Below, piece by piece: positions 13,711 to 29,947 of a DNA stretch of 52,430 bases. Each line of letters starts with the position of its first letter. Within the stretch, counting starts at the first letter, position 1. The notes under the pieces were generated by a model. It did no database searches. It saw only the letters and a program-made list of their open reading frames with translations, and was not told the DNA's origin. Origin of the DNA: Euryarchaeota archaeon RBG_19FT_COMBO_56_21 (GTDB taxonomy: Archaea; Thermoplasmatota; Thermoplasmata; UBA10834); NCBI GenBank assembly GCA_001800815.1, contig MGWC01000001.1, forward strand, positions 1 to 52,430. The letters run 5' to 3'. A program made the position numbers and the translations under genes.

Positions 13711-14709
13711 TCACTTTGACCGCATGAAGGACGAGATCTCACTCGGTTTCAGAATCCCTCTCTCAGTCACGAATGCTTTCACGTATTTCACGGGAGTAAC
13801 GTCAAAGCATGGGTTGAGAGCCTTTGAGCCTCTGGGTGCAACCCTGCAATCGCCCACACAGAGGACTTCGTCCTCTGACCTCTCCTCTATGATGATGCCC
13901 TTACCCGTGCTCATGGAAGGGTCAAAGGTGCTGATAGGAGCTGCCACGTAGAACGGCACCCAATTCTCCTTGGCAAGGACTGCCTTCGTGTAGGTCCCAA
14001 TCTTGTTGGCAAAATCCCCGTTCCTCGCAATCCTGTCCGCGCCGACGATCACAAGGTCGACTGAGTCTTTCATATAATGACCCGCTGCGTTGTCGGAGAT
14101 GATGGCGTGATCGATCCCCTCATTCAGCAACTCCCAGGCCGTGAGTTTCGCACCCTGCAGGCGGGGCCTCGTCTCGTCGACGTAGACGAATACTTTCTTG
14201 CCAGCACGATGAGCAACTCTAATTGGGGCCAGGGCAGTGCCAAAGTCCACAGTAGCCAAAGCGCCCGCGTTGCAGTGCGTCAGTATCCTGCTCCCGTCTT
14301 TAATCAGCTTCGCCCCATTCTCACCTATTCGCTTGCACTTGTCGACTATGCGGTCGGCGTAGGCGGAGGCTTCCTTGACGAGATCCTCGTCGCATCTCTC
14401 AAGCATTAAGTTCACAGCATAGGACAGATCGTATGCGGTCGGCCGAGTCTTAATCAATATCACCGAGACTTTGATCAGTGATTCCTTTCTCTGCCAAGCA
14501 AGCGCCATACCGTATGCGCCAGCCGCGCCAATTGATGGAGCTCCTCTGATGGTCATGTTCGATATCGCTTCTGCCATCTCCCTGGGGGTGCGGATGGACA
14601 CTATTCTCAGCTGATCCGGGAGCAGACGCTGATCGATCGCCTTGACGATCCCCTTCTCCATCCAAAGAGCGCGAATGTCCTTAGTGCCTCGGGCGGTCTT
14701 AACGAGCAT
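13711..14709 (-). CDS. mtnA: S-methyl-5-thioribose-1-phosphate isomerase
   Basis: IDQR.LP, IRGAP.IG, RPTA, THCNAGALAT, ETRP.LQG, NKIGTY. Confidence 0.93.
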   Translation of the reverse strand: MLVKTARGTKDIRALWMEKGIVKAIDQRLLPDQLRIVSIRTPREMAEAISNMTIRGAPSIGAAGAYGMALAWQRKESLIKVSVILIKTRPTAYDLSYAVNLMLERCDEDLVKEASAYADRIVDKCKRIGENGAKLIKDGSRILTHCNAGALATVDFGTALAPIRVAHRAGKKVFVYVDETRPRLQGAKLTAWELLNEGIDHAIISDNAAGHYMKDSVDLVIVGADRIARNGDFANKIGTYTKAVLAKENWVPFYVAAPISTFDPSMSTGKGIIIEERSEDEVLCVGDCRVAPRGSKALNPCFDVTPVKYVKAFVTERGILKPSEISSFMRSK

Positions 14710-14769
14710 CTGAACCCGCCTCGTGAATCAGCATTGCGAGATAAAAGAATCGGTGCGATTACCCTGCCA

Positions 14770-14784
14770 AAAGAAACTTAAACC
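14770..14784 (+). promoter_or_regulatory. BRE/TATA promoter of tRNA-Val
   Basis: AAAGAAACTTAAACC (purine run then TTAAA) 30-45 nt upstream of the tRNA. Confidence 0.5.
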
Positions 14785-14814
14785 AATGGGGCATTCATCG
14801 ACCTGCTCCGACAA

Positions 14815-14887
14815 GGGCCCATGGTCTAGCGGTTATGACAGCGCTCTCACACAGCGCAGATCACCGGTTCAAATCCGGTTGGGCCCA
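14815..14887 (+). tRNA. tRNA-Val (anticodon CAC), CCA not encoded
   Basis: Acceptor GGGCCCA/TGGGCCC, anticodon arm GCGCT-CTCACAC-AGCGC, T arm ACCGG-TTCAAAT-CCGGT, discriminator A. Confidence 0.97.
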
Positions 14888-14890
14888 CTC
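14875..14890 (+). repeat. Left copy of 16-bp direct repeat CCGGTTGGGCCCACTC (tRNA 3' end)
   Basis: Identical to 23274-23289. Confidence 0.9.
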
Positions 14891-15071
14891 CATGTTGCAG
14901 CCAGACAATTATCCTCAGATTCCAGACACACAGATTTCCCGGTTGATTGAGTTCAGATCTCAATTCCCTGGCTTTGAACATGTTTGGGCCCCTTCGTGCC
15001 CACACGATCGGCCAGCTCTGTGCCGCGACTGGAGTTCCTGAACACTAATTCGCCTGCCCCTGCTAGACTCG

Positions 15072-16355
15072 TCATGAGATTTCTCTCTGCTGGAGCCTCT
15101 TCCTCTTGTCTATCGTTTTCTCAGTTCTGTAACTGAGGACAGTCGCAATGATAGTCGTGCCAAGAATGACAATGAGAGTGGTGTTGAGGAACAACGCCGT
15201 CAAGTCGATGCCCTGCGGCAAATCAGGCGCGCCTACGAGCAAGGTCGTGGCTCCCGTGGCCAGTACTGCAGCTGCCAATCCTCGAGGCATGAGAGCGAAC
15301 AACGCAGACGAATCCTCCTGAGGAAGCGTGCCTATTCTGCTCGTGGCAGAGGACGTGATCCACCGAACTGCCACGATTACACACAGCATCGCGATACCGA
15401 CAATGAGCTGCAGTCCATCTATGGTTCCGAATTCGAAAAGCAAGCCCATGTAGACGAAGAAGAACGTCCGTATGAAGAAGGTTATTTCTGCGTGGAAACG
15501 CTGAATCCTGTCATCGGAACCACCTGAGAGGTACACAGAAGTGATTTGTCTTTTCACGAAACCGCGGTTCCCTATCGACAGGCCAAAAGCCAAGGCTGCA
15601 ATCGCACCCGAGCTACCGACTAGTTCAACCGCGCCTGCAGTGAGGAACAGCACTGCGATTGTCAGCATGTAGGCAAGAGGTTGCCTTTGAAGGAGCTGAA
15701 GAGCATAGAGCCAGAGCACTCCAACCCCAAAGCCCATCAGCGCACCACCCAAGAAATCGAATGTAAGATCTCCCGCGAGGTTCACGGCGTTGAACTCGCC
15801 AACTCTCACAATCGTGAGCAGGGTAATGGCGGCGAGAATGACCAAGACATCTGTGAGGGAAGATTCAATGACAAGAGTCGATTTCGTAGAGGGCCTAATC
15901 CTCAGTCTACCCGCAATGGGAATCACTATCGCGCCACTCGTTCCTCCGACTATCGCACCCAGGCTCATGGCAATGTAGATGCTCTCGCCAATCGCAACGT
16001 AGACCACGGCTGCGACTGCCATCATTGTAAGCAGAAACGTGGCGGTTGCCATGAAGAGCGAGAGCCTCATCGACTCGAACACGGCCCTTATGTCCAATGT
16101 CAAGCCTCCATCGAAAAGGATCATGACGAGCGCCACGGAGAGGAAAAGATCCCTGTAATTGTTGAATTCCTCCAGAGTCTCAGTCGTAAGAAGGTGGAGC
16201 CTACCTCCAAGAATGGCCGGTCCGAGCAGAACTCCGACAAAGACCAGCAAGAGCACGTCAGGTACCTTGTACCTCTTGAATATCAAGTTGCCAAAGAATC
16301 CGATGAACACAACCGCACCGATGGCCAGAAACGCGACTATCGTGTTGTCATCCAT
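15072..16355 (-). CDS. Cation/H+ antiporter, CPA1 (NhaP-like)
   Basis: ILFDGG, GGTSGA, ES..TD, FF..G, PRGLAAA motifs, ~12-13 TM; start MDD at 16355 inferred. Confidence 0.88.
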   Translation of the reverse strand: MDDNTIVAFLAIGAVVFIGFFGNLIFKRYKVPDVLLLVFVGVLLGPAILGGRLHLLTTETLEEFNNYRDLFLSVALVMILFDGGLTLDIRAVFESMRLSLFMATATFLLTMMAVAAVVYVAIGESIYIAMSLGAIVGGTSGAIVIPIAGRLRIRPSTKSTLVIESSLTDVLVILAAITLLTIVRVGEFNAVNLAGDLTFDFLGGALMGFGVGVLWLYALQLLQRQPLAYMLTIAVLFLTAGAVELVGSSGAIAALAFGLSIGNRGFVKRQITSVYLSGGSDDRIQRFHAEITFFIRTFFFVYMGLLFEFGTIDGLQLIVGIAMLCVIVAVRWITSSATSRIGTLPQEDSSALFALMPRGLAAAVLATGATTLLVGAPDLPQGIDLTALFLNTTLIVILGTTIIATVLSYRTEKTIDKRKRLQQREIS

Positions 16356-16422
16356 CTTCCGCACCGTTCCTTTTCAACCCAATTAGTCAAGGGCAGCTTA
16401 GGGCTGACCACGCGATGTCCTC

Positions 16423-17715
16423 CTATCCGCGCAGTCGTTCAACCACAGCATCTTGTCCTGATCTCTGTCGGGACTCCACAGGACAGGCTTCTTCTGATGT
16501 GGGAGTCCCGCTCATAGCCCTCCTGAGAAGAAACGGCGTGAAAACAGCCGTTAGAACCCCCATCAATATGATCACAGAGTAGATCTCCTTGGAAATAATC
16601 CCGATTGTCAGGCCGTACAGTCCTATGATCATGGCCACCTCCAATCTTGGTGACATTCCGATGCCTATCGAGAGGGAGTCTCGTCTTGATATTCCAAGCA
16701 GGCGCGCAGGAATGCCACAACCCGCGACCTTCGAGAGCACTGCCACGACCGTCAGCAATGCTGCGAACAGCCAGGCGATTCCCGATATCTCCCCAAGGTC
16801 AACAAGGACCCCAAGCGACACGAAGAATATCGGTGCAAAGACCATCTCGAGGACTGAGAGCTGTCTCTTGTAGCTCGATCTGAATTGACAGCGTGCAAAG
16901 CTCGTCCCGGCTACAAAGGCTCCTATAATCGCGGAAATGCCAATAGCCTCTGATACGACAGAGTATACGAAGGCAATGCACAACGCCAACAGAAACCCGC
17001 TCTCCTCTATACCTCTCTCCAGGCCTCGCTTCTGGACAGCAGCAATTCCCTTCGCGATATACTTGGAGCCGATATAGGCTCCCAGGCCGACAAACGCTGC
17101 TGAAGCGAACACAAGAAGAAACAGTTCCCAAAGGTCGATGCCTGCTCCTGTTGCTGTTCCCTTAGATATCCCGAGCACAACCATACCGAGAACATCGTCG
17201 ACCACCGCAGCTCCTATGATGATCTTGGCGGTATCGGATCCTATGACCCTCATCTCGCGAAGAACCCCGGCAGTGATTGCCACGCTCGTTGCCACAAGCG
17301 CGGCGCCAACGAAAACTGATTGGGAGAACTTGTCGTAGCCGTTGCCGGGTTCAGGAAGCATCAGTTCTGCCAGAACGAAACCGCAGACCCACGGTACGAT
17401 CACACCACCAAGTGCAATGACCATCGAGCGCTTTGTGTAGATCTGCTTGATATCACATTCGAGGCCTATCATGAACAGAAGCAAGATGGCGCCAAGATTC
17501 GCCAATTGCTCCACCAGATTTCCAGTTACTGTTCCGCCAACCGATATCAAGCCCAAAACGCTCGGTCCAATCACGATACCAACTATCAGTTGGCCGAGGA
17601 TCTTCGGCTGCCTGAACCTTGCGAATAGGAAGCTTGAAGCTATGGCCACAGAGAGTAGAAGTGACAACTGCAGCCACAGATTGCCTACTATTGCGCTCCA
17701 GATGTCCTCGAGCAT
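16423..17715 (-). CDS. Cation/H+ antiporter, CPA2 (NapA/Kef-like)
   Basis: LLF.IGLE, ATSVAI, VVDDVL, GAFVAG, PIFFVS.G, PRLEV motifs. Confidence 0.9.
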   Translation of the reverse strand: MLEDIWSAIVGNLWLQLSLLLSVAIASSFLFARFRQPKILGQLIVGIVIGPSVLGLISVGGTVTGNLVEQLANLGAILLLFMIGLECDIKQIYTKRSMVIALGGVIVPWVCGFVLAELMLPEPGNGYDKFSQSVFVGAALVATSVAITAGVLREMRVIGSDTAKIIIGAAVVDDVLGMVVLGISKGTATGAGIDLWELFLLVFASAAFVGLGAYIGSKYIAKGIAAVQKRGLERGIEESGFLLALCIAFVYSVVSEAIGISAIIGAFVAGTSFARCQFRSSYKRQLSVLEMVFAPIFFVSLGVLVDLGEISGIAWLFAALLTVVAVLSKVAGCGIPARLLGISRRDSLSIGIGMSPRLEVAMIIGLYGLTIGIISKEIYSVIILMGVLTAVFTPFLLRRAMSGTPTSEEACPVESRQRSGQDAVVERLRG

Positions 17716-17791
17716 GGTCTAACCTTTTTGTCATGGCGGTGCGTTCTTCCGATGGCCTTCGAACATGTTTCCCCAGCATTGGTCCTCTCGC

Positions 17792-18571
17792 TCAGCCACG
17801 CCTTTGACGTCTCATTACTTCGCTTCCGAGGAGAAGGATCTCAAAGCCGTTGAGCTCCCCAATGAGTGTGTTATGCTCGTCAATGACAGGCAGGTCTTCA
17901 AGGCCATGTTTCATCATCTTCTCCAACGCAGTCAGCAGCCTGTCGTCCTCAGTGACCGTCACGGGCTTCACCATGTATTCCTCGACCGAGAAAGGGAGGG
18001 GGATTCGCTTGGACCGCGGCTGTTGCCGCCCTTTCTCGAAAAGCGATAGTGAACCCTGGATTGCAGCCAGCATCTCGGTGAGTCCAATCATTCCGATGAG
18101 CTTTCTCTTGTCGTCGACGACGTACGCGCTCCTTGTCCTTGGGTCGGCCAACACTCTGTCAACGACATCGTGAAGGCCCATGCCCTTCGTGACGACGATT
18201 GGATTGGCCACGACAAGCCTGTAAGCGTCCCTCACGAATCTGAATGAGAGCTCGTCGGCCATCCGTTCGAACATACCAACGCTCAATTCCCTCTCCACTA
18301 GGTCGAGCACGCTCTTTCCAACTGAGGTTAGACCGAACTTCTTCCATGTCTTCCGTCCAGGTTCCAACAGAGAAACGACCTTCCTCTCCTCCAGTTCCTT
18401 CAATGCCGTGCCGACGTTCTGAATCGAGCGATCTGTGTCCCGTGCGATTTCAGAGGCGCCGAGGTACTGGTTGTGCGCGAAACATCTGAGGGTGACAAGC
18501 CTTCGATCTGACATGATTATCCATCTTACAGTGTCCTTCATGCTCTGCTCCATGGTCTCACAATTCTCCAT
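17792..18571 (-). CDS. Winged-helix regulator fused to a CBS-domain pair
   Basis: N-terminal ASEIARDTDRSIQNV..ALKEL HTH with LTSVG wing; C-terminal VVDD..KLIG and LPVIDE..LIG CBS motifs; start uncertain. Confidence 0.85.
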   Translation of the reverse strand: MENCETMEQSMKDTVRWIIMSDRRLVTLRCFAHNQYLGASEIARDTDRSIQNVGTALKELEERKVVSLLEPGRKTWKKFGLTSVGKSVLDLVERELSVGMFERMADELSFRFVRDAYRLVVANPIVVTKGMGLHDVVDRVLADPRTRSAYVVDDKRKLIGMIGLTEMLAAIQGSLSLFEKGRQQPRSKRIPLPFSVEEYMVKPVTVTEDDRLLTALEKMMKHGLEDLPVIDEHNTLIGELNGFEILLLGSEVMRRQRRG

Positions 18572-18658
18572 CTCGAGTTTCTCTCAGGCACTCGGCTTGT
18601 TGTGATAATTGCGGACAAGGATTTAATAGTTATTCATCATTATTCACAGATAGTCACA

Positions 18659-18706
18659 GGGATGTGCGGGCTCTCAACCCCCAATTTTGGCCCCACTGCA
18701 CATCCC
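18659..18706 (+). promoter_or_regulatory. Stem-loop in the presumptive 5' leader of the opine dehydrogenase operon
   Basis: GGGATGTGC (18659-67) pairs with GCACATCCC (18698-706), inner GGGC/GCCC; TATA-like TTTAATA at 18622-28. Confidence 0.45.
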
Positions 18707-18730
18707 ACGACTTGCCCCGAGAGTGCTCCG

Positions 18731-19849
18731 ATGCCGTACAAGAAAAGAAAAGGAGAGAGGAAGCCAACTTTTGCAGTCCTGGGAGCAGGTCACGGAGGCT
18801 TGGCGATGGCAGGCCATCTAGCGCTTCTTGGCTTCCGCACACGGCTCTGGAACCGGTCGCGCGAAAGGACAGATCGTGTCTCCGACCGCGGAGGAATAGA
18901 GCTGGAGGGCGTGATAGAAGGTTTTGGGGAATTGGAGCTGGCCACGGACGATATTGGTGCCGCAATCGAAGGAGCGGATGTGATCATGGTGGTGGTGCCC
19001 GCAACGGGGCACAGAGACATCGCCAAGCTGTGCGCCCCGCATCTTAATCGCAACCAAGTCATAGTCCTGAATCCCGGAAGGACTTTCGGAGCGCTTGAGT
19101 TCCTTCAGGTGCTCAACAATGAGGAAGCTCCGGCCACTCCCACGTTGGCTGAGGCCCAGACTTTCATCTACGTATCTCGCCACACGGACTTCGCGCACGC
19201 GCGCATAATGCAGATCAAGAACTCCGTCCCTCTTGCGGCAATCCCCGCGCACAAGACGCCGGAAGTTCTGGACATCGTCCGAAAGGCCCTTCCCGAATTC
19301 GTAGCAGCAACAAACGTCCTCGAGACGAGCCTCGACAACATAGGAGCCATCTTCCATCCGGCTCTCACTATCCTCAATGCGGCTAGAATAGAATCTACTC
19401 ACGGCGACTTCGAGTACTATCTTGAGGGTGTCTCCCCTTCGACGGCGAGGATCGTCGAAGCTGCGGACATGGAGCGCGTTGCATTGGGGACAGCTCTTGG
19501 CGTGCACCTCCACACCGCAAGGGAATGGCTCTATCTGGCCTATTCTTCTGCTGGTAAGACGCTTTATGATGCCACCCAGGGCACCCCTGGCTACAAGGGG
19601 GTAAGAGCTCCATCGACACTGACTCACAGGTACATCCTCGAGGATGTTCCAATGAGCCTCGTGCCGATGGTCTCAGTTGGCAAGTTGCTGGGGGTGAAGA
19701 CCCCCACGCTCAACGCACTCATTCACATGGCTTCTCTTATTCACGCTCGCGATTTCTGGGCCGAGGGCAGGACTGTCCAGAAGCTAGGTCTTGCTGGGAT
19801 GTCAGTTGAGGATATCCGAATGCTGGCCGTCAGAGGAGTGTCAAAATGA
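18731..19849 (+). CDS. NAD(P)-dependent opine (octopine/nopaline) dehydrogenase family protein
   Basis: Rossmann GAGHGG, LNPGRTFG, N.GAIFHP, D.ER.A, HRY..EDVP, G..TP motifs; start ATG 18731 inferred. Confidence 0.9.
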   Translation: MPYKKRKGERKPTFAVLGAGHGGLAMAGHLALLGFRTRLWNRSRERTDRVSDRGGIELEGVIEGFGELELATDDIGAAIEGADVIMVVVPATGHRDIAKLCAPHLNRNQVIVLNPGRTFGALEFLQVLNNEEAPATPTLAEAQTFIYVSRHTDFAHARIMQIKNSVPLAAIPAHKTPEVLDIVRKALPEFVAATNVLETSLDNIGAIFHPALTILNAARIESTHGDFEYYLEGVSPSTARIVEAADMERVALGTALGVHLHTAREWLYLAYSSAGKTLYDATQGTPGYKGVRAPSTLTHRYILEDVPMSLVPMVSVGKLLGVKTPTLNALIHMASLIHARDFWAEGRTVQKLGLAGMSVEDIRMLAVRGVSK

Positions 19850-21507
19850 GAATCCTGGCAGCTTCCATAGGCAATTGCGTCCACACCGCTGGCATTCAGG
19901 CCTTCCTGGAAATAGCCCGTACTCTCGGACACGATACTGTATTCCTCGGTCCAGCGGTCTCCGTAAAGAGGCTCGCCGAAGCCATTGTCGAGCACAAGCC
20001 GGATGCTGTTGCCGTGAGTTACAGGTTGACCCCCGAAAGCGCAAAGGTGATTTTCGACGAGCTGCAATCTGAGATCACCAGGAGCCCAGACTTAAAGAAA
20101 AGCAGGAAGTTCTTCTTCGGTGGGACGCCTCCAGTAGCGGCCCTCGCCGTCAAGACAGGCATATTCGATACATGCTTCGACGGCAGCGAGCAGGAGAAAG
20201 CCGTTGTGGCACTTCTCCAAGGGACACCTCTGGTAAAGAGTGCATCCGAGTACGCCTCGGACCTTGTTACCAGGGTTCAGAGCTCTCAACCGCTGCCCCT
20301 TATTCGACATCATTTCGGGCTTCCATCGATGAAGGACACGATTGAAGGCGCCAGGAAGATCGCTGAGAGCGGCCTGTTGGATATCCTCTCGATAGCGCCG
20401 GATCAGAGCGCACAAGAATCCTTTTTCAGACCTCGGGAGATGGACTCGCGCCTCGATGGTGCCGGAGGCGTCCCTCTGAGAAGCCCCGCCGACCTCCAAG
20501 CACTATATGAGGCGACAAGAACAGGCAGCTTCCCCCTCCTCAGGTGCTATAGTGGCACAAGAGACCTCATCAGATGGGCCGAGATGATGAAGGACACCAT
20601 CAACACAGCATGGGGTGCGGTCCCTCTCACCTGGTACAGCGAGCTCGACGGCCGCTCCAAAAGAACTCTGAATGAAGCCATTGCAGAAAACCAGCAGGCC
20701 ATGAAATGGTATGCTGAGCACGGGATTCCCGTGGAGGTCAACGAATCCCATCAATGGGCTCTGAGGCGTTCAGGCGACGTCGTGGAACTCGCGACAGCAT
20801 ACCTCGCAGCGTACAACGCGAAAGCTCTCGGCGTGAGAGACTACGTTTGTCAGTTCATGTTCGACACTCCAAGAGGCATCTCGCCCGCAATGGACATCGC
20901 GAAGATGCTCGCCAAGCTCGAGCTCGTAGAGTCCATCAAGAACGGCGAGTTCAGGGTAATCAGGATGGTCAGATCTGGTCTGACCTCATTCTCCTCGTCG
21001 GCCAATGTCGCAAAGGGGCAGCTGGCTGCTTCCGTGTACGCCGCCATGACCCTGAAACCTCACATCGTCCACGTTGTGGGCTACAGTGAGGGGGATCATG
21101 TGTCCACGGCAGAAGAGGTGATCGAAAGCTGCGAGATCGCCCAGGGAGCAATCATGAAGGCTCTTCTCGGTGGGGTGAGACCGGAGACCGATCCAAAGGT
21201 CATGGTCAGAAAGGCAAACCTCATCGAGGAGACTCGGTACCTGCTTGATGCGATCAAACGCTTGAAGAGAGCCAACTCACATGATCCGCTCACATCCCCC
21301 GAGACGATAGCCGAGGCGATCAGGGAAGGATTGCTCGATGCATCGGATCTTCGCGGGAGCGGAGTGGCCCGGGGGAGAATAGTGACATCAATCGTCGATG
21401 GAGCCTATGTGGCGGTCGATTCCAACACTGGCAAGCCGATCACGGAGAAGGAGAGAATCCAGGAACTTGCAGTCTGCGAACACGACCTTGATCTCGCCGA
21501 GATTTGA
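19846..21507 (+). CDS. Cobalamin-binding protein: N-terminal B12 domain fused to a glutamate-mutase-E-like TIM barrel
   Basis: GNCVHTAG (DxHxxG variant), FLG, SY, GG B12-domain motifs; ~420-aa C-terminal alpha/beta domain; no CxxxCxxC; ATGA overlap with upstream gene. Confidence 0.75.
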   Translation: MRILAASIGNCVHTAGIQAFLEIARTLGHDTVFLGPAVSVKRLAEAIVEHKPDAVAVSYRLTPESAKVIFDELQSEITRSPDLKKSRKFFFGGTPPVAALAVKTGIFDTCFDGSEQEKAVVALLQGTPLVKSASEYASDLVTRVQSSQPLPLIRHHFGLPSMKDTIEGARKIAESGLLDILSIAPDQSAQESFFRPREMDSRLDGAGGVPLRSPADLQALYEATRTGSFPLLRCYSGTRDLIRWAEMMKDTINTAWGAVPLTWYSELDGRSKRTLNEAIAENQQAMKWYAEHGIPVEVNESHQWALRRSGDVVELATAYLAAYNAKALGVRDYVCQFMFDTPRGISPAMDIAKMLAKLELVESIKNGEFRVIRMVRSGLTSFSSSANVAKGQLAASVYAAMTLKPHIVHVVGYSEGDHVSTAEEVIESCEIAQGAIMKALLGGVRPETDPKVMVRKANLIEETRYLLDAIKRLKRANSHDPLTSPETIAEAIREGLLDASDLRGSGVARGRIVTSIVDGAYVAVDSNTGKPITEKERIQELAVCEHDLDLAEI

Positions 21508-21525
21508 TTCATTCGGTGAATGGAA

Positions 21526-22995
21526 ATGGAAGGGATCGCAGGCACATTCGGAATGAGAGACAAACACCTCGTGAGAATGATGCTGGAGAAGCTCGAACAC
21601 AGGGGACCCGACGCATCAGCAATCTATGCTGACGACGCTCTCGTTCTCGGGGCCAGGAGGTCGAGAAGAAGCCCCATCGAAAAGGCCACAGCGATTGCAC
21701 AGGAGGATGGGGTTGCTGTCGCATGCGATTCATACATCTTCAACAAAGAGCGGTTGCGAAAGACGATTGCCCCGAGCTGCGACGGGAGTGCCTCAGACGC
21801 GCAGCTCGTGCTCAAAATGTATAGGACCATAGGCGCTTCCGTCTTCCGCTACATCGATGGGGCATATGCCATAGTCATCGTTGACTGTGGCAAGACCCTT
21901 GTCGCAAGGGATACCTACGGTCTCAAACCGCTTTACTTCTCGGGGGACATGAGAAGGGGCATATACTCTTCCGAAATCAAGTCCCAGCAACTCGCAGAAG
22001 AGCGATTCATTCCCTTCCCGCCTGGCGAGATGCTTGTCTCCGGGGAGGGTTTCAGAAGAATCGTGAGGCAAGAAATCCCTTGGACCAAAGATCTCAATCC
22101 CAAGCGTCCCGCAGATAGAGTGCGTCAGCTCATAATGCAGAGTGTGTTGGGCTGTGTCGACAATTCGAGCGGATTCAACGTGTTACTCAGCGGAGGTGTC
22201 GACAGCAGCGTTATTGCTGCAGCTGCTGCTGAGACTGCATTGAGCACACAGAGTGTCTGCGTAGGGACGGAAGATAGCGAGGACCTCAAGATGGCTCGAT
22301 TGGTCGCAGATCACCTCGGGACCAGACACAAAGAGCGTGTCTATGATGTCGAAGACATGCTCAAAGTCCTCAGCGACGCAATATACTATGGGGAGACTTT
22401 CGACTACCCTCTCGTGAGAAGTTGCATCCCCAATTACATTGCTACGCATGTCTTCTCGGACAGGCACAGGATCACTCTCTGCGGCGAGGGAGGAGACGAG
22501 GTATTCGCAGGATACGACTTCCTATTTGGCGTCAAGAAGGACGAGGCGCTGAGATTGGAGAGGGTCGCCCTGCTCAGGGATGGTCACATGACCGGATTCC
22601 AGAGAGTCGATCGGATGACTGCGTCTGCCTCTCTGGATGGAAGAATGCCCATGATGAGCAATCAGGTTGTGGATTATGGTCTTCGGCTGGGTAGGAAGGC
22701 ATTGCTCGGATCCAAAGTCGAGAAGAGCAAACTTGTCCTTCGCAAAGCCTTCGCCGATCTCTTGCCGAAGCAGGTTACATGGAGAAAGAAGAGGAGGTTC
22801 AGCGATGGCGCTGGCTCCATCAGCTCTCTTGTCGGGTATTCAGAGAAGCTCATATCTGACAAGGAGTTCGAGAGAGAACGGGGACTACTGCCAAGAATCA
22901 GGACGAAGGAGGAGCTGTTGTACTACAGGGTCTTTCAGCGTCACTTCCCATCGGAGAGCGCACTAGCCTCAGTTGGATTCACGCCACGCCCATGA
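21526..22995 (+). CDS. Asparagine synthetase B-like ATP-dependent amide ligase lacking the N-terminal nucleophile Cys
   Basis: MEGIAG start, HRGPD, RD.YG.KPLY, SEIK, PP-loop LSGGVDSS, GEGGDEVFAGY, K.VLR, WRKK; GGTGA RBS at 21515 (alternative start 21520). Confidence 0.88.
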   Translation: MEGIAGTFGMRDKHLVRMMLEKLEHRGPDASAIYADDALVLGARRSRRSPIEKATAIAQEDGVAVACDSYIFNKERLRKTIAPSCDGSASDAQLVLKMYRTIGASVFRYIDGAYAIVIVDCGKTLVARDTYGLKPLYFSGDMRRGIYSSEIKSQQLAEERFIPFPPGEMLVSGEGFRRIVRQEIPWTKDLNPKRPADRVRQLIMQSVLGCVDNSSGFNVLLSGGVDSSVIAAAAAETALSTQSVCVGTEDSEDLKMARLVADHLGTRHKERVYDVEDMLKVLSDAIYYGETFDYPLVRSCIPNYIATHVFSDRHRITLCGEGGDEVFAGYDFLFGVKKDEALRLERVALLRDGHMTGFQRVDRMTASASLDGRMPMMSNQVVDYGLRLGRKALLGSKVEKSKLVLRKAFADLLPKQVTWRKKRRFSDGAGSISSLVGYSEKLISDKEFERERGLLPRIRTKEELLYYRVFQRHFPSESALASVGFTPRP

Positions 22996-23273
22996 CTACG
23001 CGAGGGAAGTCACGAATGAGAGACCTAACCCCATGTTTCCACCACGCAATCTCTCTCTGATAGTCTGAAACCATTTTCCTATGGGCAAATAGACTGTGTC
23101 CAAACCCGTTCATTTTGTACCCGTAAGTATAGCATCCAGCTTTAATCACCGGCAGATTCCGGGCCATAATCCGGGATTGAGAAAAAAGTTAAAGGGTTTT
23201 GAGAACTGGCCCTGCATTGTCTCACAGGAATTGAAATCCGAGATAGAATATCTGGCTCGCAACAGGTGCAGGC

Positions 23274-23289
23274 CCGGTTGGGCCCACTC
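23274..23289 (+). repeat. Right copy of tRNA-Val 3'-end repeat (att-like), with a degenerate T-arm upstream
   Basis: CCGGTTGGGCCCACTC identical to 14875-14890; upstream ACAGGTGCAGGC aligns with ACCGGTTCAAAT. Confidence 0.85.
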
Positions 23290-23319
23290 GATTTCTCCGC
23301 TCAAAACAATAATCAACAT

Positions 23320-24954
23320 TCATTTGTCGTAGAGTCGGCAGGCGACGAAATGACCGTTTCCAACATCGTCCATCTGCGGTTCCTCCACCGCTCCGAGCTT
23401 GACCGCCAATTCAAGCTTTGGTCCCTTTGTTCGTTTGATGGCGACCCGTCGCACTGCGAGCGCGATTGGGTTCTTCTGCTCCTTCATGAATTTGAGACGG
23501 GTCTCCAGCTCGGCGACCGCCTTATCGAGATTAGCCTCAGGCCCGAGCACTTTGAAAACGACGTGTCTCCCTCTGGGTTTGATCGACAGAATCATGTTGT
23601 GAACTCTGGAAGCAGGGTCCACGTCCAGCACTCTTTCCATCAACATCGCCGCTTCCTGAGCCACTTTCCTAGCTGATATCTTCCGTCGGGGCGGCTTCTT
23701 ACCTTTATCCGCGCTCCCCGCCGCCGTCCCAGGCAATGACAACTTGTCGCAGGACACGACGACCTCTCGATCTACTAAGAACATGTCAATTGCGACCACA
23801 GCGTCCAATAATGAAGACTCCTTCTTGCGTTCGGCGAAATAGGCCCCGAGCCATCTCTTCACCAAATCAACGTCTTCCCCGGACCGCAGGTCGACATAGG
23901 CTGCGAAGCCATCGGATCTGAGCCCCACGACGTGGTTCGACAGGATGTGCGTCGGGTTTGTGATCTTCGCGACTTCTAGCAGGTGGGCAACAAGGTCCCT
24001 CCCCTCCCAGCCGCACTTGTCAAAGGCTACGGAGCACCTCGGATGGAATCTGCACCCCTTCGGCGGGTCAATGGGGCTGGGGACTTCGCCTTCAATGCCC
24101 CTCCTGTCCTTCCTCTTGAGAGGGTCGGGGATGGGAATTGACGAAATGAGAGCCTTCGTGTAGGGGTGCAGAGGGTTGCCCATGAACTCGCGAGTTGGAG
24201 CCAGCTCGACTATCTTCCCCAGATACATGACTGCGATCCTATCGCTCATATGCTCTATGACGGACAGATCGTGAGAGATGAAAAGGAAGCTTAGTCCCAG
24301 TTTAGACTGGAGACGCTTGAGAAGGTTCAGAGCCTGAGCCTGAACCGACACGTCCAACGCCGAAGTAGGCTCGTCCAGAACTATGAAGTCAGGATCGAGC
24401 GCAAGTGCTCTCGCAAGCGCTATCCTTTGCTTCTGACCCCCGCTGAACTCGTGTGGCAGCCTGGAAAGATGGTCATGGGAGAGGCCCACTTGCTCGATGA
24501 GCTCGTGGATCTTCTCCCTCTTTATGAACTTCGAGTCACCGATGCCCTTGGGTGGCCCATGAATCGCAAATCCCTCTCCAATTATCCTCTCCACCGTCAT
24601 CCGCGGGTCGAGGCTGGAATATGGATCCTGGAAGACGATCTGCATCCTCTTCCTGAAGCCACGGACTGCGGACTGCGGGATCTCCGTGATATCCTTGCCC
24701 TGGAAGATGATCCTCCCACCTGTCGGCTCGGCGAGCCTCAGTATGGTGCGTCCGACCGTGGTTTTTCCGCATCCCGACTCACCGACTAGACCCAGGGTCT
24801 CACCCCTGAATACCGACAGATCTACGCCATCGACTGCGTGGACATGTCCGACCACAGTGCTGAAAACGCCCTTCTTCACCGGGAAGAGTTTCTCCAGACC
24901 AATGGTCTGGACGATTGGTTGGCTGCCGTTAGCCCGGTCTCCGCTAACGGACAT
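23320..24954 (-). CDS. Oligopeptide/dipeptide ABC transporter ATPase (OppF/DppF) with ~200-aa C-terminal insertion
   Basis: [37 protein letters not shown]...HFVAC. Confidence 0.92.
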
Positions 24955-26221
24955 TTGGGCCCTCCTTTCCAGTCCACAAATGGCATGAAACGAAGTGCCC
25001 TGGAGAGATCTCCACCCGCCGCGGCATATCCTCTCCGCAGACTTCCGTGGCCTTCTCGCATCTCTCTACGAACGCGCAGCCTTGGAACGGACGCATCAGG
25101 TTTGGCACCGTCCCTCTTATCACTGACAGCTCATCCTTTCTCTCGCCCAGTTTAGGGAATGCCGCGAGCAGTCCAGCCGTGTAAGGGTGTCTCGGGTTGG
25201 CGAATAGCTCGAAGGTCTCCGCCTCCTCCACGATCCGACCTGCGTACATCACGCATATCCGGTCGCACACCTCCGCCACGACTCCCAAGTTGTGCGTGAT
25301 CAACATCATCGAGCTGCCAGTCGTGCGCATGAGGTCTCTCAACAGGTTGAGTATCTGGGCCTGGATCGTGACATCGAGCGCGGTCGTCGGTTCGTCCGCG
25401 ATCAGAAGTGATGGGGAGCACGATAGCGCGAGCGCGATCATGACGCGTTGCTTCATGCCGCCGCTCAGCTCGTGGGGATACTGCTTCATGACATTGACCG
25501 GCGCGGCAATCCTCACCAGCTTCAGCACCTCCTCTATCTTCTTGTCGAGTACAGCTCGATCATAGATGCCCTGGTGCAAGGAGATGACCTCGCCGAGTTG
25601 ATAGGCGACCGTGAAGACTGGATCTAGGGCGGTGGCAGGGTCTTGGAATATCATGGATATGCTCTTGCCTCTGATGGATCTCATCTGGTCATCGGTTCTT
25701 GTGAGCAAATCGAACGAGAAAAGCGCAGCAGCTCTCCCGACTTTGTCGGACGCAGGCATCGTCTTGGCATTCTGTGCGAGATAGTACCTTGTGACTCCGG
25801 TCGGAACTCTGTCCGGCGGAACGATCTTATCGATCTGCGCTGGGGTCAACTTCTTGGCCTTCTTCTTGCGACCAGTGTCCCTGTAATCGTAGAGCGCGAC
25901 AAGCTTCTTCTTCTCCACCAGAGACGATCTCCTGTACCATTCCTGGGCCTCTATCTCCAGCTGCATCCTTCGCTGTCGGACATCCTGAGGCTCCATGAAG
26001 AAGATGTTGCCAGCTGTAATCTTTCCGGGGCCCGGAACGAGCCTCAATATGGAGAAGGCGGTCATGCTCTTCCCGCAGCCCGTTTCTCCAACAATCCCCA
26101 CGGATTCCTTTTCGTAGACTGTGAAATCAATGCCGTCGAGAGCAGTCACCACCCCCTCGTGCAGGAAGAATTGAGTCCGTAGCCCCACAATCTCGAGCAG
26201 GGGCTTCCTACCGGGCATCAT
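24944..26221 (-). CDS. Oligopeptide/dipeptide ABC transporter ATPase (OppD/DppD) with ~90-aa insertion
   Basis: [35 protein letters not shown]; start 26221 overlaps upstream stop. Confidence 0.92.
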
Positions 26222-27168
26222 CTCCTCAGCCCCTTCATACGCGGGTCGAGCACGTCCCTCAGACCGTCCCCTAGCAGGTTGAACCCCAGAATGGTCAGCA
26301 GCAGCACGAGTCCAGTGAAGGTCGCCATCCATGGTGCCTCCTCCAGGTACGGGATGCCCCTGTACAGCATGTAGCCCCAGCTTGGCGTCGGAGGCTGCGT
26401 GCCCACTCCAAGGAAGCTGAGGCTGCTCTCAATTGTGATCGCATCCGCGACGCCGATGGACGCCCACACGATCAGAGGAGCCAGACAGTTCGGCAGGACG
26501 TGTGTGAACATGATCCTGATATTCTTCGCGCCCAGAGCCCTGCTAGCCTCGACGAACAGCCGCTCCCGAACCGCAAGCGCCTGACCGCGCATGAGCCTCG
26601 CGAACCCGGCCCAGTAGGATATGGATATCGCCAATATGACGTTGTTCAGGCTTGGTCCTAGCGCTGCGGCGAATGCAAGTGCCAGCAGGAACGCGGGGAA
26701 TGTCCAGAACAAGTCAATCGTGCTCGCGATGATGTAATCGACTTTGCCGCCGAAATAGCCCGCCGTAAGCCCCAGCAACACCCCGATCACCAGGGAGAAA
26801 AAAACTGCCAGCGTCGCCACCAACAACGAAACTCTCGCGCCCCAGATAACCCGACTGAATACATCTCGACCTAGCTCGTCAGTCCCAAAGATGTGTCCGT
26901 CTCCCTTGGATACGTTGTACCCGAAGAACCTGAACCAGTGCGGAGGCAAAGTCTGGTCCTCCGGATGGATCTCGCTCGGGGTCGGGTCGGCAATTGGCAG
27001 GACGGGGGCAAACACGGCGAGCGCGACCATCACGACAATGACAGACAAACCAATGACGACCATCTTGTTCCTGCTGCCCCGCTGGATCATATCGGCTATG
27101 GTCTCCCTCGCGCCGCCGGCCATCTTCCAGCCGAGAAGCCTGTCGTTCAGACCCTTCCTCAGCCTCAT
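26218..27168 (-). CDS. Oligopeptide ABC permease (OppC/DppC)
   Basis: FGTDELGRD, FVEASRALGA EAA loop, LSFLG.G..PPTPSWG. Confidence 0.95.
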   Translation of the reverse strand: MRLRKGLNDRLLGWKMAGGARETIADMIQRGSRNKMVVIGLSVIVVMVALAVFAPVLPIADPTPSEIHPEDQTLPPHWFRFFGYNVSKGDGHIFGTDELGRDVFSRVIWGARVSLLVATLAVFFSLVIGVLLGLTAGYFGGKVDYIIASTIDLFWTFPAFLLALAFAAALGPSLNNVILAISISYWAGFARLMRGQALAVRERLFVEASRALGAKNIRIMFTHVLPNCLAPLIVWASIGVADAITIESSLSFLGVGTQPPTPSWGYMLYRGIPYLEEAPWMATFTGLVLLLTILGFNLLGDGLRDVLDPRMKGLRR

Positions 27169-28106
27169 CCCAGCCTCACCCTTGGGTCCACGAACGCGTA
27201 GAGTATGTCAGCAACCAGGTTGCCGAGTACGACGAACATCGCCAGTACGAGTATGCACCCCTGAACAGTCGGATAGTCGTAGTTCGTGATGGAGTTGGTC
27301 ACGAGCAGACCAAGCCCAGGCCATGAGAAGACGGTCTCGACGACGACTGCGCCCGCGACGAACCAACCGATGTCGAGGCCAATGACCGTGATCACAGGGA
27401 GCATCGCGTTCTTGAGAGCATGCTTGAATATCACTTCGCTCTCCGGGAGTCCTCTAGACCTGAGCTGAGTGATGTAGTCCTGTCTCTGCACCTCAAGCAT
27501 GCTCGATCTCATCATGCGGGTCGTGAGCGCCGCATTGCCAAGACCTAAAGTCATCGCGGGCAGGATGATGCTCTTGAAACCCCCGACCGTTCCTTCGATT
27601 GGAAGCCATCCTAAGTACACCGCGAACAGCAGCATTAGCAGGATGCCGAGCCAAAACGAGGGCATGGCGTATGCAACGAGCGTGAAGACCATCACACTCC
27701 TGTCCTTCCAGGAGTTCTGCTTCAGCGCCGAGTATACCCCAAGAGGGATGCCCAGTGAATATGAAATAGTCAAGCCGATGGCCATGAGCTCGAGTGTCTT
27801 CGGAAGCCTCTGGATGATGAGGTCGCTTACGTCGAGATTGAGTGTCTGACGACTGACCGATTGGCCGAGATCGCCCTGCGCCAGGCGGTAGAGGAATTTG
27901 CCGTACTGGACGATGAACGGCTGGTCAAACCCATACTTCTCTCTGAGCTTCTGAATATCATCGGGGGACGCGTGCGGAGGCAGGATGTTGACGATGGGAT
28001 CTCCGGGGGTCAGGTACAGCATAAGAAAGACGATGAATGTCGCAAGCAGAATTACAGGAATGGCGAGAAGAATCTTCCTGATCACGTAAGAGATTAGATC
28101 CGCCAT
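27165..28106 (-). CDS. Oligopeptide ABC permease (OppB/DppB)
   Basis: PGDP, GDLG.S, P.FWLG, HALKNA, E.VF.WPGLG, DPRV; start MADL at 28106 inferred. Confidence 0.95.
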   Translation of the reverse strand: MADLISYVIRKILLAIPVILLATFIVFLMLYLTPGDPIVNILPPHASPDDIQKLREKYGFDQPFIVQYGKFLYRLAQGDLGQSVSRQTLNLDVSDLIIQRLPKTLELMAIGLTISYSLGIPLGVYSALKQNSWKDRSVMVFTLVAYAMPSFWLGILLMLLFAVYLGWLPIEGTVGGFKSIILPAMTLGLGNAALTTRMMRSSMLEVQRQDYITQLRSRGLPESEVIFKHALKNAMLPVITVIGLDIGWFVAGAVVVETVFSWPGLGLLVTNSITNYDYPTVQGCILVLAMFVVLGNLVADILYAFVDPRVRLG

Positions 28107-28222
28107 GGATTTCTTCCCCTTACAGCCCCCATCCGCCGCCGTCCATAGATGCTTCTGCTCCGCGTGTTTTGGTCGGGTTCCGCATATGAAATGAAATGGT
28201 AAAGGGTTTTCTAGTTTTTCCA

Positions 28223-29947
28223 CTACTTCACTATGTCAACGTCCAGGATGTTAATAGGCTGCTCCTGGCCGAGCGGGTGCACATACCAGCCTGTCACATA
28301 GTTGTGTATCGCGAAGATCTGGTACCAGAATATGATCGGTGCCCAGGCCCCCTGCGTCAATAGCCTGATGTGTCCAGCTGTGGCGTTGTCAGAGAAATCC
28401 TTCTCCGTCTCCGCGTAGGTCCAGTTGGTGACATAGCCGTCGAAAACGTCGTCCATGTACCATCCGGTGTTCGAACCTCCAGCGGCCCATGTGCCGAAGT
28501 GCCAGTCGAGGATCTCCGCTCTCGGCCACGAGTACCAGAACAAGATGGCTTCCTGTTCTCCATCAGCCGCCTTGGCCCTCAGAGTTGTCTCCGCGTATTG
28601 CGCGAGATCCACATGGACTCCAACCGCCTGGAACTGGGTCTGCAGAATCTCTCCCATCGAAACGTCCTCGCCCTTGTTTGTAGTCCATAGATCCAGCGTC
28701 AGCTCAGCTCCCGCGGCATTCTCTAGCCATGCGTCGCTGTCTCTGTTGGTCCAGCCGGCCGCCGCGAACAGTGTGCTCGCCTTGGCGGGGTCATATGAAT
28801 AGTTGTATATCGCTGGAACCTTCGTCGACTCAGGCTCGATTGGCGACAGGTAGTTGACACCCTCCTCACCAATGCCGTGCCAAACCGTCTGCAGGATCTG
28901 CGTTCTGTTGATGGCGTAGCCGAACGCTTTTCTGAGGTCCGCATTCGTCCACGGAGTCTTGTTGCAGTTGAACTCTACGTGATATGTCCCCTGTCCGCGG
29001 CCCGAAATCACCGTCATCTCGGTGTTGGCCTCGTATGTCGGAACCTTGTTCGGTGGCACCTGCTGCAGGATATCGATCGCCCCGCTCTCAAAGCCGGCGA
29101 ATCTTGCTGCCTGGTCCGGTATCACCCTGTAGATGATCTTGTCGATCTTTGCGGGCCCCTTGTTTGTGTACCAGGAGGCTCCCCAGTTGTAGTCCTTGTT
29201 CTTCACAAGTGTGACATGATCGCCTGCGACCCACTCCTTGAGCTTGAACGGACCAGTCCCGATGACTTTGTGTCCGGCCGTTCCGTAGTTCTCAAGTCCG
29301 TCCGATTCAAGCGCGTCAGGACCCATCATCGAACCGTACAAGTGCGACAGGTTGAAGATCAACGCCACATCAACCCAAGTAAGGTTGAGCGTCATGTGGT
29401 AGTCATCCCTGCACCATATGCCCGCGTCCGGCCATCCGGTCTTGTTCTCGCAGCCATATATGGCCCAGAACTCGTACTGCACCCAGCTATCATCTTGGGC
29501 GTAGTAGTCGATGATCCTCCTGACCGCATCTGAGTCAAACGCCAATCCGTCATGGAACTTCACACCCTCCTTGAGCGTGATGTTGAATGTGGCGTTGTAC
29601 GGGTAACCCGTGCCTCTCATGTTCTTGAGCTCCCAAGACTCTGCAAGTCCTGGTACGTAGGCACCGGTCAGGTCCCTGGCGATCAAGGTCTCGTATATCA
29701 TGCCCGGAGGCCCATACATCGCACTCGTTTTCGCAGGGTCCATCGTCTCAACATCGGAGCTCATAGCGATAACGAGGACCTTACCCTCATCCGCATTGAA
29801 CAGACCTGCGGCCCATGCGCCGGCTACTGCGGCTATCACCAGTATGACCACGATTACGACTGCCCACAACATCTTGCTTTTCGGTCGAGCTGGCGAGCCG
29901 GCAGGTTGCGCTATCTCACTCTCTGGTTGCTTCTCAGAACTCCCCAC
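28223..29947 (-). CDS. ABC substrate-binding protein family 5 (OppA/DppA-like), N-terminal membrane anchor
   Basis: TMDP, YETL, PGLAESWE, GVKFHDG, GTGPFK, LRKAF.YAINR motifs. Confidence 0.93.
   Translation of the reverse strand: MGSSEKQPESEIAQPAGSPARPKSKMLWAVVIVVILVIAAVAGAWAAGLFNADEGKVLVIAMSSDVETMDPAKTSAMYGPPGMIYETLIARDLTGAYVPGLAESWELKNMRGTGYPYNATFNITLKEGVKFHDGLAFDSDAVRRIIDYYAQDDSWVQYEFWAIYGCENKTGWPDAGIWCRDDYHMTLNLTWVDVALIFNLSHLYGSMMGPDALESDGLENYGTAGHKVIGTGPFKLKEWVAGDHVTLVKNKDYNWGASWYTNKGPAKIDKIIYRVIPDQAARFAGFESGAIDILQQVPPNKVPTYEANTEMTVISGRGQGTYHVEFNCNKTPWTNADLRKAFGYAINRTQILQTVWHGIGEEGVNYLSPIEPESTKVPAIYNYSYDPAKASTLFAAAGWTNRDSDAWLENAAGAELTLDLWTTNKGEDVSMGEILQTQFQAVGVHVDLAQYAETTLRAKAADGEQEAILFWYSWPRAEILDWHFGTWAAGGSNTGWYMDDVFDGYVTNWTYAETEKDFSDNATAGHIRLLTQGAWAPIIFWYQIFAIHNYVTGWYVHPLGQEQPINILDVDIVK

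Follow-up and report, generated by a model that had tools for sequence, protein, structure and literature searches.

A three-gene operon in a Thermoplasmata genome

We analyzed a 52,430-nt stretch of DNA (the window) from Euryarchaeota archaeon RBG_19FT_COMBO_56_21, contig MGWC01000001.1, which carries three genes encoding an opine dehydrogenase (OpDH), a B12 mutase-like protein, and a homologue of the asparagine synthetase AsnB. The OpDH gene (18731..19849, + strand) starts with ATG inside a longer GTG frame that runs from 18602. The mutase-like gene (19846..21507, +) encodes a B12-binding domain fused to a remotely GlmE-like domain, and its start overlaps the OpDH stop in an ATGA at 19846–19849. 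Its own stop (21505–21507) is followed, after a 12-nt gap, by the ATG at 21520 of the AsnB homologue (21520..22995, +); the GGTGA ahead of that codon is better spaced for a second ATG at 21526, the probable true start, which gives the N-terminus MEGIAG.

A sequence-only reading of the same DNA had described three co-oriented, tightly coupled genes of these families. The overlap and the short gap bear out the coupling, and the Octopine_DH, B12-binding, and Asn_synthase Pfam scores, all above their cut-offs, confirm the family names. Our analysis moves the emphasis from a lactam made by a Cys-less AsnB to a conserved mutase–OpDH pair, optionally followed by amidation, under cyclic di-AMP (c-di-AMP) control. 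Two clues go beyond the earlier reading: determinants for acidic amino acids in the OpDH and a c-di-AMP riboswitch in bacterial orthologues. The enzymes of the module belong to known superfamilies. Our literature searches found no account of the mutase subfamily, the gene pairing, the riboswitch control, or the product, and, in agreement with the earlier reading, no characterized pathway with this trio; primary c-di-AMP riboswitch gene lists and their supplements might list the operon.

An OpDH–mutase core with an optional third gene

Conservation was assessed in the best 80 of 586 related loci, obtained from a scan of one genome per species; their labels span at least 13 phyla, with 10 loci unlabelled. 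OpDH lies directly upstream of the mutase gene, on the same strand, in 68 of the 73 loci with at least 1150 bp of upstream sequence. Three of the other five have OpDH nearby in another order, and two have none within the locus. Estimated gaps between the two genes range from −7 to 157 nt and are mostly below 40. Because this gene order recurs in 68/73 loci from many phyla, the arrangement is far more than chance.

An AsnB homologue then follows downstream of the mutase gene in 33 of the 70 loci with enough downstream sequence; by tblastn, one is adjacent in 36/80 loci. Clustering of neighboring open reading frames (ORFs) recovered the B12 protein in 78 loci, OpDH in 69, and AsnB in 33, with every other neighbor cluster confined to at most 11 loci. 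With no other widely conserved neighbor, the substrates must be common metabolites. The unit is thus a two-gene core plus an optional third gene, with nothing else needed nearby. The sequence-only reading had staked its case on the three families traveling together: They are found together in other genomes, and the OpDH–mutase pair stands as a unit, but the AsnB homologue is optional and its place is sometimes taken by a Ddl-like ATP-grasp ligase.

A c-di-AMP riboswitch in the bacterial operon leader

In the four Bacillota loci first scanned, Rfam placed a c-di-AMP riboswitch (RF00379) just upstream of OpDH in all four. We built a covariance model from those four and searched the 80 loci and the window (1.17 Mb). 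It returned 21 matches, in 21/80 loci, all on the coding strand and all in the operon leader, with none elsewhere. Rechecked with Rfam, the four first loci and eight more (12/12) scored 85–118 bits against a gathering score of 38. By label, the riboswitch occurs in 18 of 26 Bacillota loci, one of five Armatimonadota loci, two of ten unlabelled loci, and none of the others. In one leader (L068), a near-consensus promoter is followed by the aptamer, a 12-bp terminator hairpin, and the gene.

Five whole genomes carry one to four RF00379 copies each, and the operon's copy is the sole one in two of them, both Bacillota (G003:C1:1546781-1546927 and G011:C43:58511-58645, corresponding to L035 and L047). 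As far as the available text of the sources goes, the c-di-AMP riboswitch is reported to terminate transcription of K+ importers (PMC10636490), its regulon is described as comprising K+ and amino-acid transporters, cell-wall remodelling, and osmotic-shock genes (PMC7266159), and c-di-AMP is reported to lower Glu/Asp counter-ion pools in L. lactis (PMC8092236).

The OpDH carries determinants for acidic amino acids

The archaeal OpDH scores 163.3 bits for PF02317 (Octopine_DH; cut-off 30) and finds a full-length relative (E 6e-82, residues 12–364) in PDB 1bg6, N-(1-D-carboxyethyl)-L-norvaline dehydrogenase (CENDH). Its Rossmann GxGxxG motif reads GAGHGG (residues 18–23), and in the alignment to 1bg6 it has equivalents of the catalytic trio, whose numbering we take to be His202, Arg292, and Asp297. 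The catalytic His, Arg, and Asp are present in 69–70 of 72 mutase-linked OpDHs, the remainder being gaps. A His–Asp dyad is named as catalytic in opine dehydrogenases in the available text of Telek et al. 2024 (PMC10787698).

The same text characterizes six hot-spring mODHs, about 40% identical to ArODH, that favor L-Asp and then L-Glu with pyruvate, most of them favoring NADPH; it reports that A111R + N198G in ArODH, and the reverse changes in mODH-582, switch specificity between Phe and Asp, and that Arg at position 35 marks NADPH use (PMC10787698). In the archaeal OpDH, Arg117 aligns with ArODH A111 and Gly205 with N198, positions 34–36 read N-R-S, and the changes N14H, D34N, and D36S described for mODHs are present too. 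Because Arg, Gly, and Arg occupy the three published determinant positions, we assign the protein, on alignment evidence, to the CENDH/ArODH type and to its Asp/Glu-preferring, mODH-like subclass; it probably prefers NADPH. The determinant Arg is found in 72/72 and the Gly in 70/72 of the OpDHs adjoining the mutase gene.

The kcat reported for mODHs with Asp is about 1 s−1, against 861 s−1 for ArODH with Phe (PMC10787698)—a low value compatible with Asp not being the native substrate and leaving room for a better one. The words “cobalamin,” “neighbo,” and “operon” are absent from PMC10787698, and a B12-mutase context, a riboswitch, and a physiological role go undiscussed in its available text.

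Gene 2 encodes a putative carbon-skeleton mutase of a new subfamily

Residues 1–112 of the mutase-like protein form a B12-binding domain (PF02310, 52 bits; cut-off 32.1) in which His13, Ser58, and Gly92–Gly93 of the B12 signatures are present and the Asp position of DxHxxG is Cys. CxHxxG replaces DxHxxG across the family: Cys stands at this position in 73/79 members and Asp in 4/79, and the His is kept in 77/79. The C-terminal ~440 aa have no Pfam match, and PDB sequence searches with the protein and with its profile returned B12-binding domains only, with nothing for the C-domain.

Kinship of the C-domain with GlmE is suggested by relatives and by profile comparison. PF06368 (Met_asp_mut_E) matches 5 of 25 relatives at E ≤ 1, weakly (best 1e-6); three scores are 22.9, 23.8, and 27.5 bits against a cut-off of 26.6, with P0137 above it, and one match covers model positions 21–383 of 441. 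Using hhalign, the probability was 41.9% against a single GlmE and 54.8% (E 1.2e-4, 353 columns) against a 19-sequence GlmE alignment. In the ESM Atlas, Met_asp_mut_E accounts for 26 of the 30 nearest clusters. Gene 2 can on these comparisons be described as a putative adenosylcobalamin (AdoCbl) carbon-skeleton mutase of a new subfamily with CxHxxG. Its near-invariant residues (R154, H156, D179, D186, Q190, R212, R233, Y235, R270, E297, and D311) suggest a polycarboxylate substrate.

A CobA-type adenosyltransferase (195 bits) is encoded in the archaeon's genome. MutL is the family of the accessory gene of glutamate mutase, and in L082 a mutL gene lies next to canonical GlmE. Some members of the mutase family are fusions (P0136, P0137, P0151, and P0155): one carries Peptidase_M15_3 (732 aa), one a glutathione-synthetase/RimK-type ATP-grasp (863 aa), and two, both distant relatives, MutL (1226 and 1266 aa); the MutL fusions also speak for the kinship with GlmE. 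The family is large. One search gave 7,507 matches at E ≤ 0.001 among 8,000 scored candidates; in a second, clusters at 50% identity numbered 689 at E ≤ 1e-3, 414 at 1e-10, and 138 at 1e-30. The closest homologues are labelled Thermoplasmata or Methanobacteriota.

The AsnB homologue and the nature of the third step

The AsnB homologue combines PF00733 (Asn_synthase, 162.9 bits; cut-off 21) with GATase_7 and falls below the NCBIfam cut-offs of PRK09431 (329.4 vs. 499) and TIGR01536 (219 vs. 267.1). Its closest PDB match is E. coli AsnB, 1ct9 (E 3.9e-52). Cys1 is Glu (N-terminus MEMEGIAG or MEGIAG), the glutamine-binding Asn-Gly-Glu of 1ct9 aligns with Asp-Ser-Tyr, and the PP-loop SGGVDS and the GEGGDE motif are kept. 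The protein is predicted to be an ATP-dependent amide synthetase with a dead glutaminase.

The sequence-only reading saw in the missing cysteine a likeness to beta-lactam synthetase and CarA, from which a specialized metabolite could follow: an opine cyclized to a lactam. The Cys-less state is real, and the glutamine-binding Asn and Glu are gone as well, as in those two enzymes. PDB matches reach both beta-lactam synthetase (E 2.9e-23, 86 bits) and CarA (E 4.2e-13, 53 bits), and the secondary amine of an N-carboxyalkyl amino acid is positioned to attack within the molecule. The kinship with AsnB, at 181 bits, is nevertheless well above that with beta-lactam synthetase, and 8 of 35 linked AsnBs (L008, L026, L027, L042, L052, L060, L064, and L076) keep both Cys1 and Asn-Gly-Glu. 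In a quick IQ-TREE run (37 rows, rooted on three canonical long AsnBs), the linked AsnBs split from the canonical three with 97% support in the SH-like approximate likelihood-ratio test (SH-aLRT), and the Cys1-bearing members were basal in the linked clade (seven in the tree; L027 was too short to enter). The Cys-less members are derived, many with glutaminase-domain deletions, and Caldanaerobacter lost Cys1 independently of its Thermoanaerobacter sister. Basal Cys1-bearing members make glutaminase loss secondary and point to an ancestral reaction that used glutamine-derived NH3, which favors simple amidation over lactam closure. AsnB is also missing from about half of the loci, tailoring, export, and resistance genes are not conserved nearby, and the c-di-AMP riboswitch points to housekeeping physiology. 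We consider the lactam decidedly unlikely; these comparisons favor amidation as the third step.

In three of five genomes, a canonical 610–613-aa MCGI-type AsnB coexists with the linked paralogue, so the linked AsnB is not the housekeeping enzyme in those three. The TTIR stretch of E. coli AsnB is important for aspartyl-AMP formation. All linked members have (A/F/P)(P/A)L(V)R instead, and because of this replacement their carboxylate substrate probably differs from that of AsnB. No canonical Cys-bearing AsnB was found in the archaeon's 84.6%-complete genome. A second Cys-less homologue on another of its contigs (C18:1425-2897, +; N-terminus MQGLAG) nests in the archaeal (Thermoplasmata) linked clade; with a degenerate PP-loop, LDGGINSS, and unrelated neighbors, it may be inactive.

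A divergent Ddl-like ATP-grasp, co-directional with the operon and abutting it, occurs beside or instead of AsnB in L007, L047, L074, and L078; only divergent, co-directional ATP-grasps (82–150 bits) were counted as linked. In L047 and L078 the riboswitch precedes the ATP-grasp, which is located ahead of OpDH, so that ligase belongs to the operon in these two loci. The Ddl of the Tepidanaerobacter group (263 bits, in divergent orientation) was rejected as a partner and is probably an ordinary cell-wall enzyme.

A paralogous mutase also pairs with acid-type OpDH-like enzymes

A paralogous family of ~611-aa mutases, 28–30% identical and with canonical DxHxxG, was sampled in 75 metagenomic loci (L122–L196) fetched with a four-sequence alignment. 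An OpDH-like gene lies nearby in 51/75 of them, and the paralogue-linked OpDH-like proteins have R or K in 52/52 and G in 52/52 at the determinant positions. Because the paralogous mutases also pair with acid-type OpDH-like enzymes, the pairing of a mutase-superfamily protein with an acid-specific OpDH is old and functional. An ATP-dependent amide-forming enzyme follows in both mutase lineages.

The paralogue loci (for example, L130:1086-8082 and L126:3110-11099) contain Bac_transf, a DegT-type aminotransferase, GT2/GT4 glycosyltransferases, an aldo-keto reductase, and two or three ATP-grasp ligases. They look like surface-polysaccharide clusters, and opine-type acyl decorations of amino sugars may be made there. 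Such acyl groups are reported from O-antigens, with alanopine on Qui4N and N-epsilon-carboxyethyl-lysine given as cases in the available text of PMC10609480.

These clusters give weight to an envelope role for the window operon as well, in which its product would be a building block of peptidoglycan, pseudo-wall, S-layer glycan, or polysaccharide and the AsnB homologue or ATP-grasp would make the amide link. The ~611-aa mutase and OpDH-like pair sits within polysaccharide clusters that include “sugar-transfer associated” ATP-grasps; in Thermoanaerobacter and Caldanaerobacter, c-di-AMP riboswitches besides the operon's govern cell-wall hydrolases; one relative of the mutase is fused to Peptidase_M15_3; and Ddl-type ligases occur as neighbors. 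Around the operon itself, however, Pfam searches of the 20 commonest or selected neighbor clusters of the 80 loci turned up neither glycosyltransferases nor sugar-modifying families. The same trio is shared by Thermoplasmata-type archaea and by phyla, both Gram-negative and Gram-positive, whose envelopes are very unlike one another, and an ancestral glutaminase in the linked AsnB clade implies NH3 rather than a macromolecular amine as the nitrogen donor. An envelope product is, in our judgment, unlikely.

Genomic setting of the archaeal operon

Divergent from the operon, a gene at 17792..18571 (−) encodes a helix-turn-helix (HTH) protein of HVO_A0114 type with a CBS pair (Pfam CBS 3.1e-15, HVO_A0114 2.3e-6). 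It is kept in the same divergent position, at 68% and 66% identity, in L003 and L004, the two Thermoplasmata loci with upstream sequence. The protein is a candidate operon regulator and might take, at the protein level, the part that the riboswitch plays in bacteria. That it senses c-di-AMP finds no support here, as no diadenylate cyclase domain was found in the archaeon's genome. Beyond it, also divergent, lie two tandem genes of the Na+/H+-exchanger family (CPA; 15072-16364 and 16423-17715, −).

The earlier description of a tRNA-bounded island did not hold. ARAGORN detected a single tRNA in the whole 52,430-nt window, a tRNA-Val at 14815-14888 (−), and an Rfam scan of 14000-24000 returned that tRNA alone; G+C content around the three genes (0.53–0.56) lies within the window range (0.529–0.588). 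An Rfam “Plastid-ycf2” match antisense to the tRNA (37.3 bits against a threshold of 65.7) is almost certainly a tRNA artefact. In two related Bacillota loci, arrays of seven to eight tRNA genes stand directly downstream of the operon (L047:10857-11491 and L078:9828-10561) and may be a source of the impression of a tRNA-flanked island in other genomes.

Further downstream the window carries a 455-aa ORF without a Pfam match at E ≤ 0.001 (30876-32243, −) and a Ras/Roc-family small GTPase (32452-33189, +; Pfam Ras 8.1e-22) beside a methyltransferase and an exosome Csl4-like gene. Neighbors in the window of this Thermoplasmata-type archaeon include Nop56/58, eIF-2B, an exosome subunit, and the Ras-like GTPase.

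Convergent with the operon, a five-gene Opp/Dpp-type ATP-binding cassette (ABC) system occupies 23320-29947 (−) and raises the question of an opine-type metallophore, akin to staphylopine or pseudopaline, whose metal complex an Opp/Nik-type transporter would import. CntM-type enzymes fall in the same Pfam family as OpDH, the hypothetical product would be an aminopolycarboxylate, and partial Opp-like matches turn up at a small number of further loci. Even L003 and L004, the closest relatives, have not conserved the Opp genes, and the transporter was on that ground rejected as part of the system. There is likewise no conserved exporter. No gene resembling nicotianamine synthase (NAS; CntL) was found in the 20 flanking ORFs scanned, no genome-wide NAS search having been made. 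The regulation is by c-di-AMP, with no metal-responsive element detected, and the OpDH determinants fit Asp or Glu rather than a nicotianamine-like intermediate. A metallophore is the least probable of the accounts weighed here.

A proposed route to branched opines

From these observations we infer a mutase substrate, an order of steps, a product, and a physiological role. We tentatively propose, at a probability somewhat short of even, that the module makes a branched opine from a glutamate-type amino acid—through the mutase, an OpDH step with pyruvate, and optional amidation—and that the product serves as an osmolyte or K+ counter-ion. The mutase would first rearrange L-glutamate or a close derivative to a branched acid of the 3-methylaspartate type. 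OpDH would then condense this acid reductively with pyruvate, using NADPH, to an N-(1-carboxyethyl) branched aspartate, the “branched opine.” Where present, the AsnB homologue would adenylate one carboxylate and amidate it, drawing nitrogen from free NH3 in this archaeon and from glutamine in the Cys1-keeping orthologues. The product, or its amide, would be an intracellular, metabolically inert anionic solute acting as a K+ counter-ion or compatible solute.

The glutamate-mutase equilibrium is unfavorable. The order mutase then OpDH is favored because an irreversible condensation would pull that equilibrium, and because mODHs prefer the C4 acid Asp to Glu. The order may instead be reversed, with the mutase acting on the glutamate opine; this would explain an unconserved GlmE amino-group site. 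For the product, an anionic solute or K+ counter-ion, neutralized by amidation in some lineages, fits best on three grounds: the operon is under riboswitch control, no transport or tailoring genes are conserved around it, and genes of ion homeostasis adjoin it. Besides the two CPA antiporters and the CBS protein of the archaeon, genes for MscS, ClC+CBS, MarC, and DUF389 recur beside the operon in Bacteroidota and Ignavibacteriota, although these channel and antiporter neighbors come from related genomes and are not independent counts.

A catabolic reading would assign the same genes to a redox sink, a variant Glu/Asp fermentation in which OpDH regenerates NAD(P)+ and the AsnB homologue is an ammonia-dependent asparagine synthetase. 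Most named hosts appear, by their record titles, to come from anaerobic lineages or habitats, and catabolism is the classical role of glutamate mutase. The OpDH reaction can run in either direction, and OpDH in invertebrate anaerobiosis offers an analogy; the archaeon's lack of a canonical Cys-bearing AsnB, its sole other homologue having a degenerate PP-loop, would agree. Against this, Tepidanaerobacter carries a separate canonical MutL–GlmE–methylaspartase cluster besides its OpDH–mutase pair, canonical long AsnB coexists with the linked paralogue as described above, and no methylaspartase, thiolase, or energy-conserving genes are linked to the operon. Sharing an OFF riboswitch with K+ importers speaks for a product made when needed, and the NADPH-type Arg35, with the low turnover given in the available text of PMC10787698, suits biosynthesis. 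We judge a catabolic role highly improbable.

Several observations weigh against the branched-opine proposal or narrow it. The product is predicted only. Homology of the C-domain to GlmE is remote, as the window protein has no PF06368 match and the best hhalign probability is 54.8%, and the Asp of DxHxxG is Cys in 73/79 members. The residues of GlmE that we take to bind glutamate are Arg66, Arg100, Arg149, and Glu171. In the low-confidence hhalign alignment, the three arginines face H156, Q190, and Y235 and the glutamate falls in a gap; mutase R154 and R233 lie two positions off the presumed GlmE Arg sites. These unmatched residues suggest that the mutase substrate may be other than free glutamate. 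Searches of the archaeon's genome (84.6% complete) found neither MutL nor a PduO-type adenosyltransferase. Membership of the OpDH in the mODH subclass is read from published positions rather than from a direct comparison of mODH sequences.

Distribution and regulation bring further reservations. The mutase is patchy, occurring in 3/151 sampled genomes of the archaeon's own phylum. About half of the loci carry no AsnB. Of five genomes with no linked copy, three gave no homologue in a protein search (E ≤ 1e-10), making the AsnB step optional. Rfam found no riboswitch in the window (14000-24000), and the genome yielded no diadenylate cyclase domain; the c-di-AMP link is therefore shown for bacteria only. 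Other riboswitch copies in Thermoanaerobacter and Caldanaerobacter precede NlpC/P60 and LysM cell-wall hydrolases and a family-5 peptide-type binding protein, so the riboswitch alone does not single out osmolyte synthesis.

A broader version of the proposal joins the two mutase lineages: An ancient unit of mutase and acid-specific OpDH would make branched opines and their amides as a new metabolite class, serving anaerobic bacteria and archaea as a c-di-AMP-controlled K+ counter-ion or compatible solute in the window lineage and as amide-linked decorations of surface polysaccharides in the sister lineage. We see this as possible, though on the doubtful side.

If the branched-opine proposal is right, it would give a function to a large family annotated as “cobalamin B12-binding domain-containing protein” (more than 7,500 sequences; 138 clusters at E ≤ 1e-30) and bring a new class of substrate to the few known B12 carbon-skeleton mutases. 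A physiological role would follow for a bacterial and archaeal OpDH subclass so far known as a biocatalyst only. It would also identify a major enzymatic target of the c-di-AMP riboswitch, the sole target in 2/5 genomes checked, and could explain K+ and osmotic balancing in syntrophic and thermophilic anaerobes such as Tepidanaerobacter, which is reported, in the available text of PMC4374699, to tolerate 1 M ammonium.

Comparison with known systems

Each enzyme of the module departs from its nearest characterized counterpart. The OpDH shares fold and catalytic residues with ArODH, CENDH, and the mODHs, and with the mODHs also Arg at ArODH position 111, Gly at 198, Arg at 35, and His at 14; the mODHs differ in having been studied as biocatalysts only. 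With GlmS/GlmE and MutL, the mutase has in common a B12 Rossmann domain with the His ligand, Ser, and the GG motif, a C-domain that aligns with GlmE over 353 columns, and relatives fused to MutL. It differs from GlmS/GlmE in being one fused polypeptide with an N-terminal B12 domain and Cys for the Asp of DxHxxG. Glutamate mutase itself is set apart further: The presumed glutamate-binding residues of GlmE are unmatched, methylaspartase is not linked, and in one genome the mutase coexists with canonical GlmE.

The AsnB homologue has the two-domain architecture, the SGGxDS PP-loop, and the GEGxDE motif of E. coli AsnB (1ct9), from which it differs in carrying Glu for Cys1, in having lost the glutamine-binding Asn and Glu, and in scoring below the equivalog cut-off. 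Linked AsnBs are also ~60–120 residues shorter than the canonical AsnB of the same bacteria. With beta-lactam synthetase and CarA it shares an AsnB fold without the Cys1 nucleophile; similarity to them is far weaker than to AsnB, and in orthologues of the window gene the glutaminase site looks functional.

As a pathway, the module resembles routes to compatible solutes that join a mutase to a capping enzyme or an AsnB-type amidotransferase. AblA/AblB, which make N-epsilon-acetyl-beta-lysine, and AsnO/Ngg, which make N-acetylglutaminylglutamine amide (NAGGN), likewise render an amino acid inert by rearrangement and by capping its charges. The NCBIfam NAGGN amidotransferase model matches the AsnB homologue weakly, at 137.8 bits against a cut-off of 570. 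In the proposed route a B12 mutase would stand where AblA/AblB have a radical-SAM aminomutase, and reductive N-carboxyethylation would take the place of acetylation. A likeness by description extends to PylB/PylC/PylD, where a methyl-branch-forming mutase, a Ddl-like ATP-grasp amide ligase, and an NAD(P) dehydrogenase act together; there, PylB is a radical-SAM enzyme and PylD is not an opine dehydrogenase.

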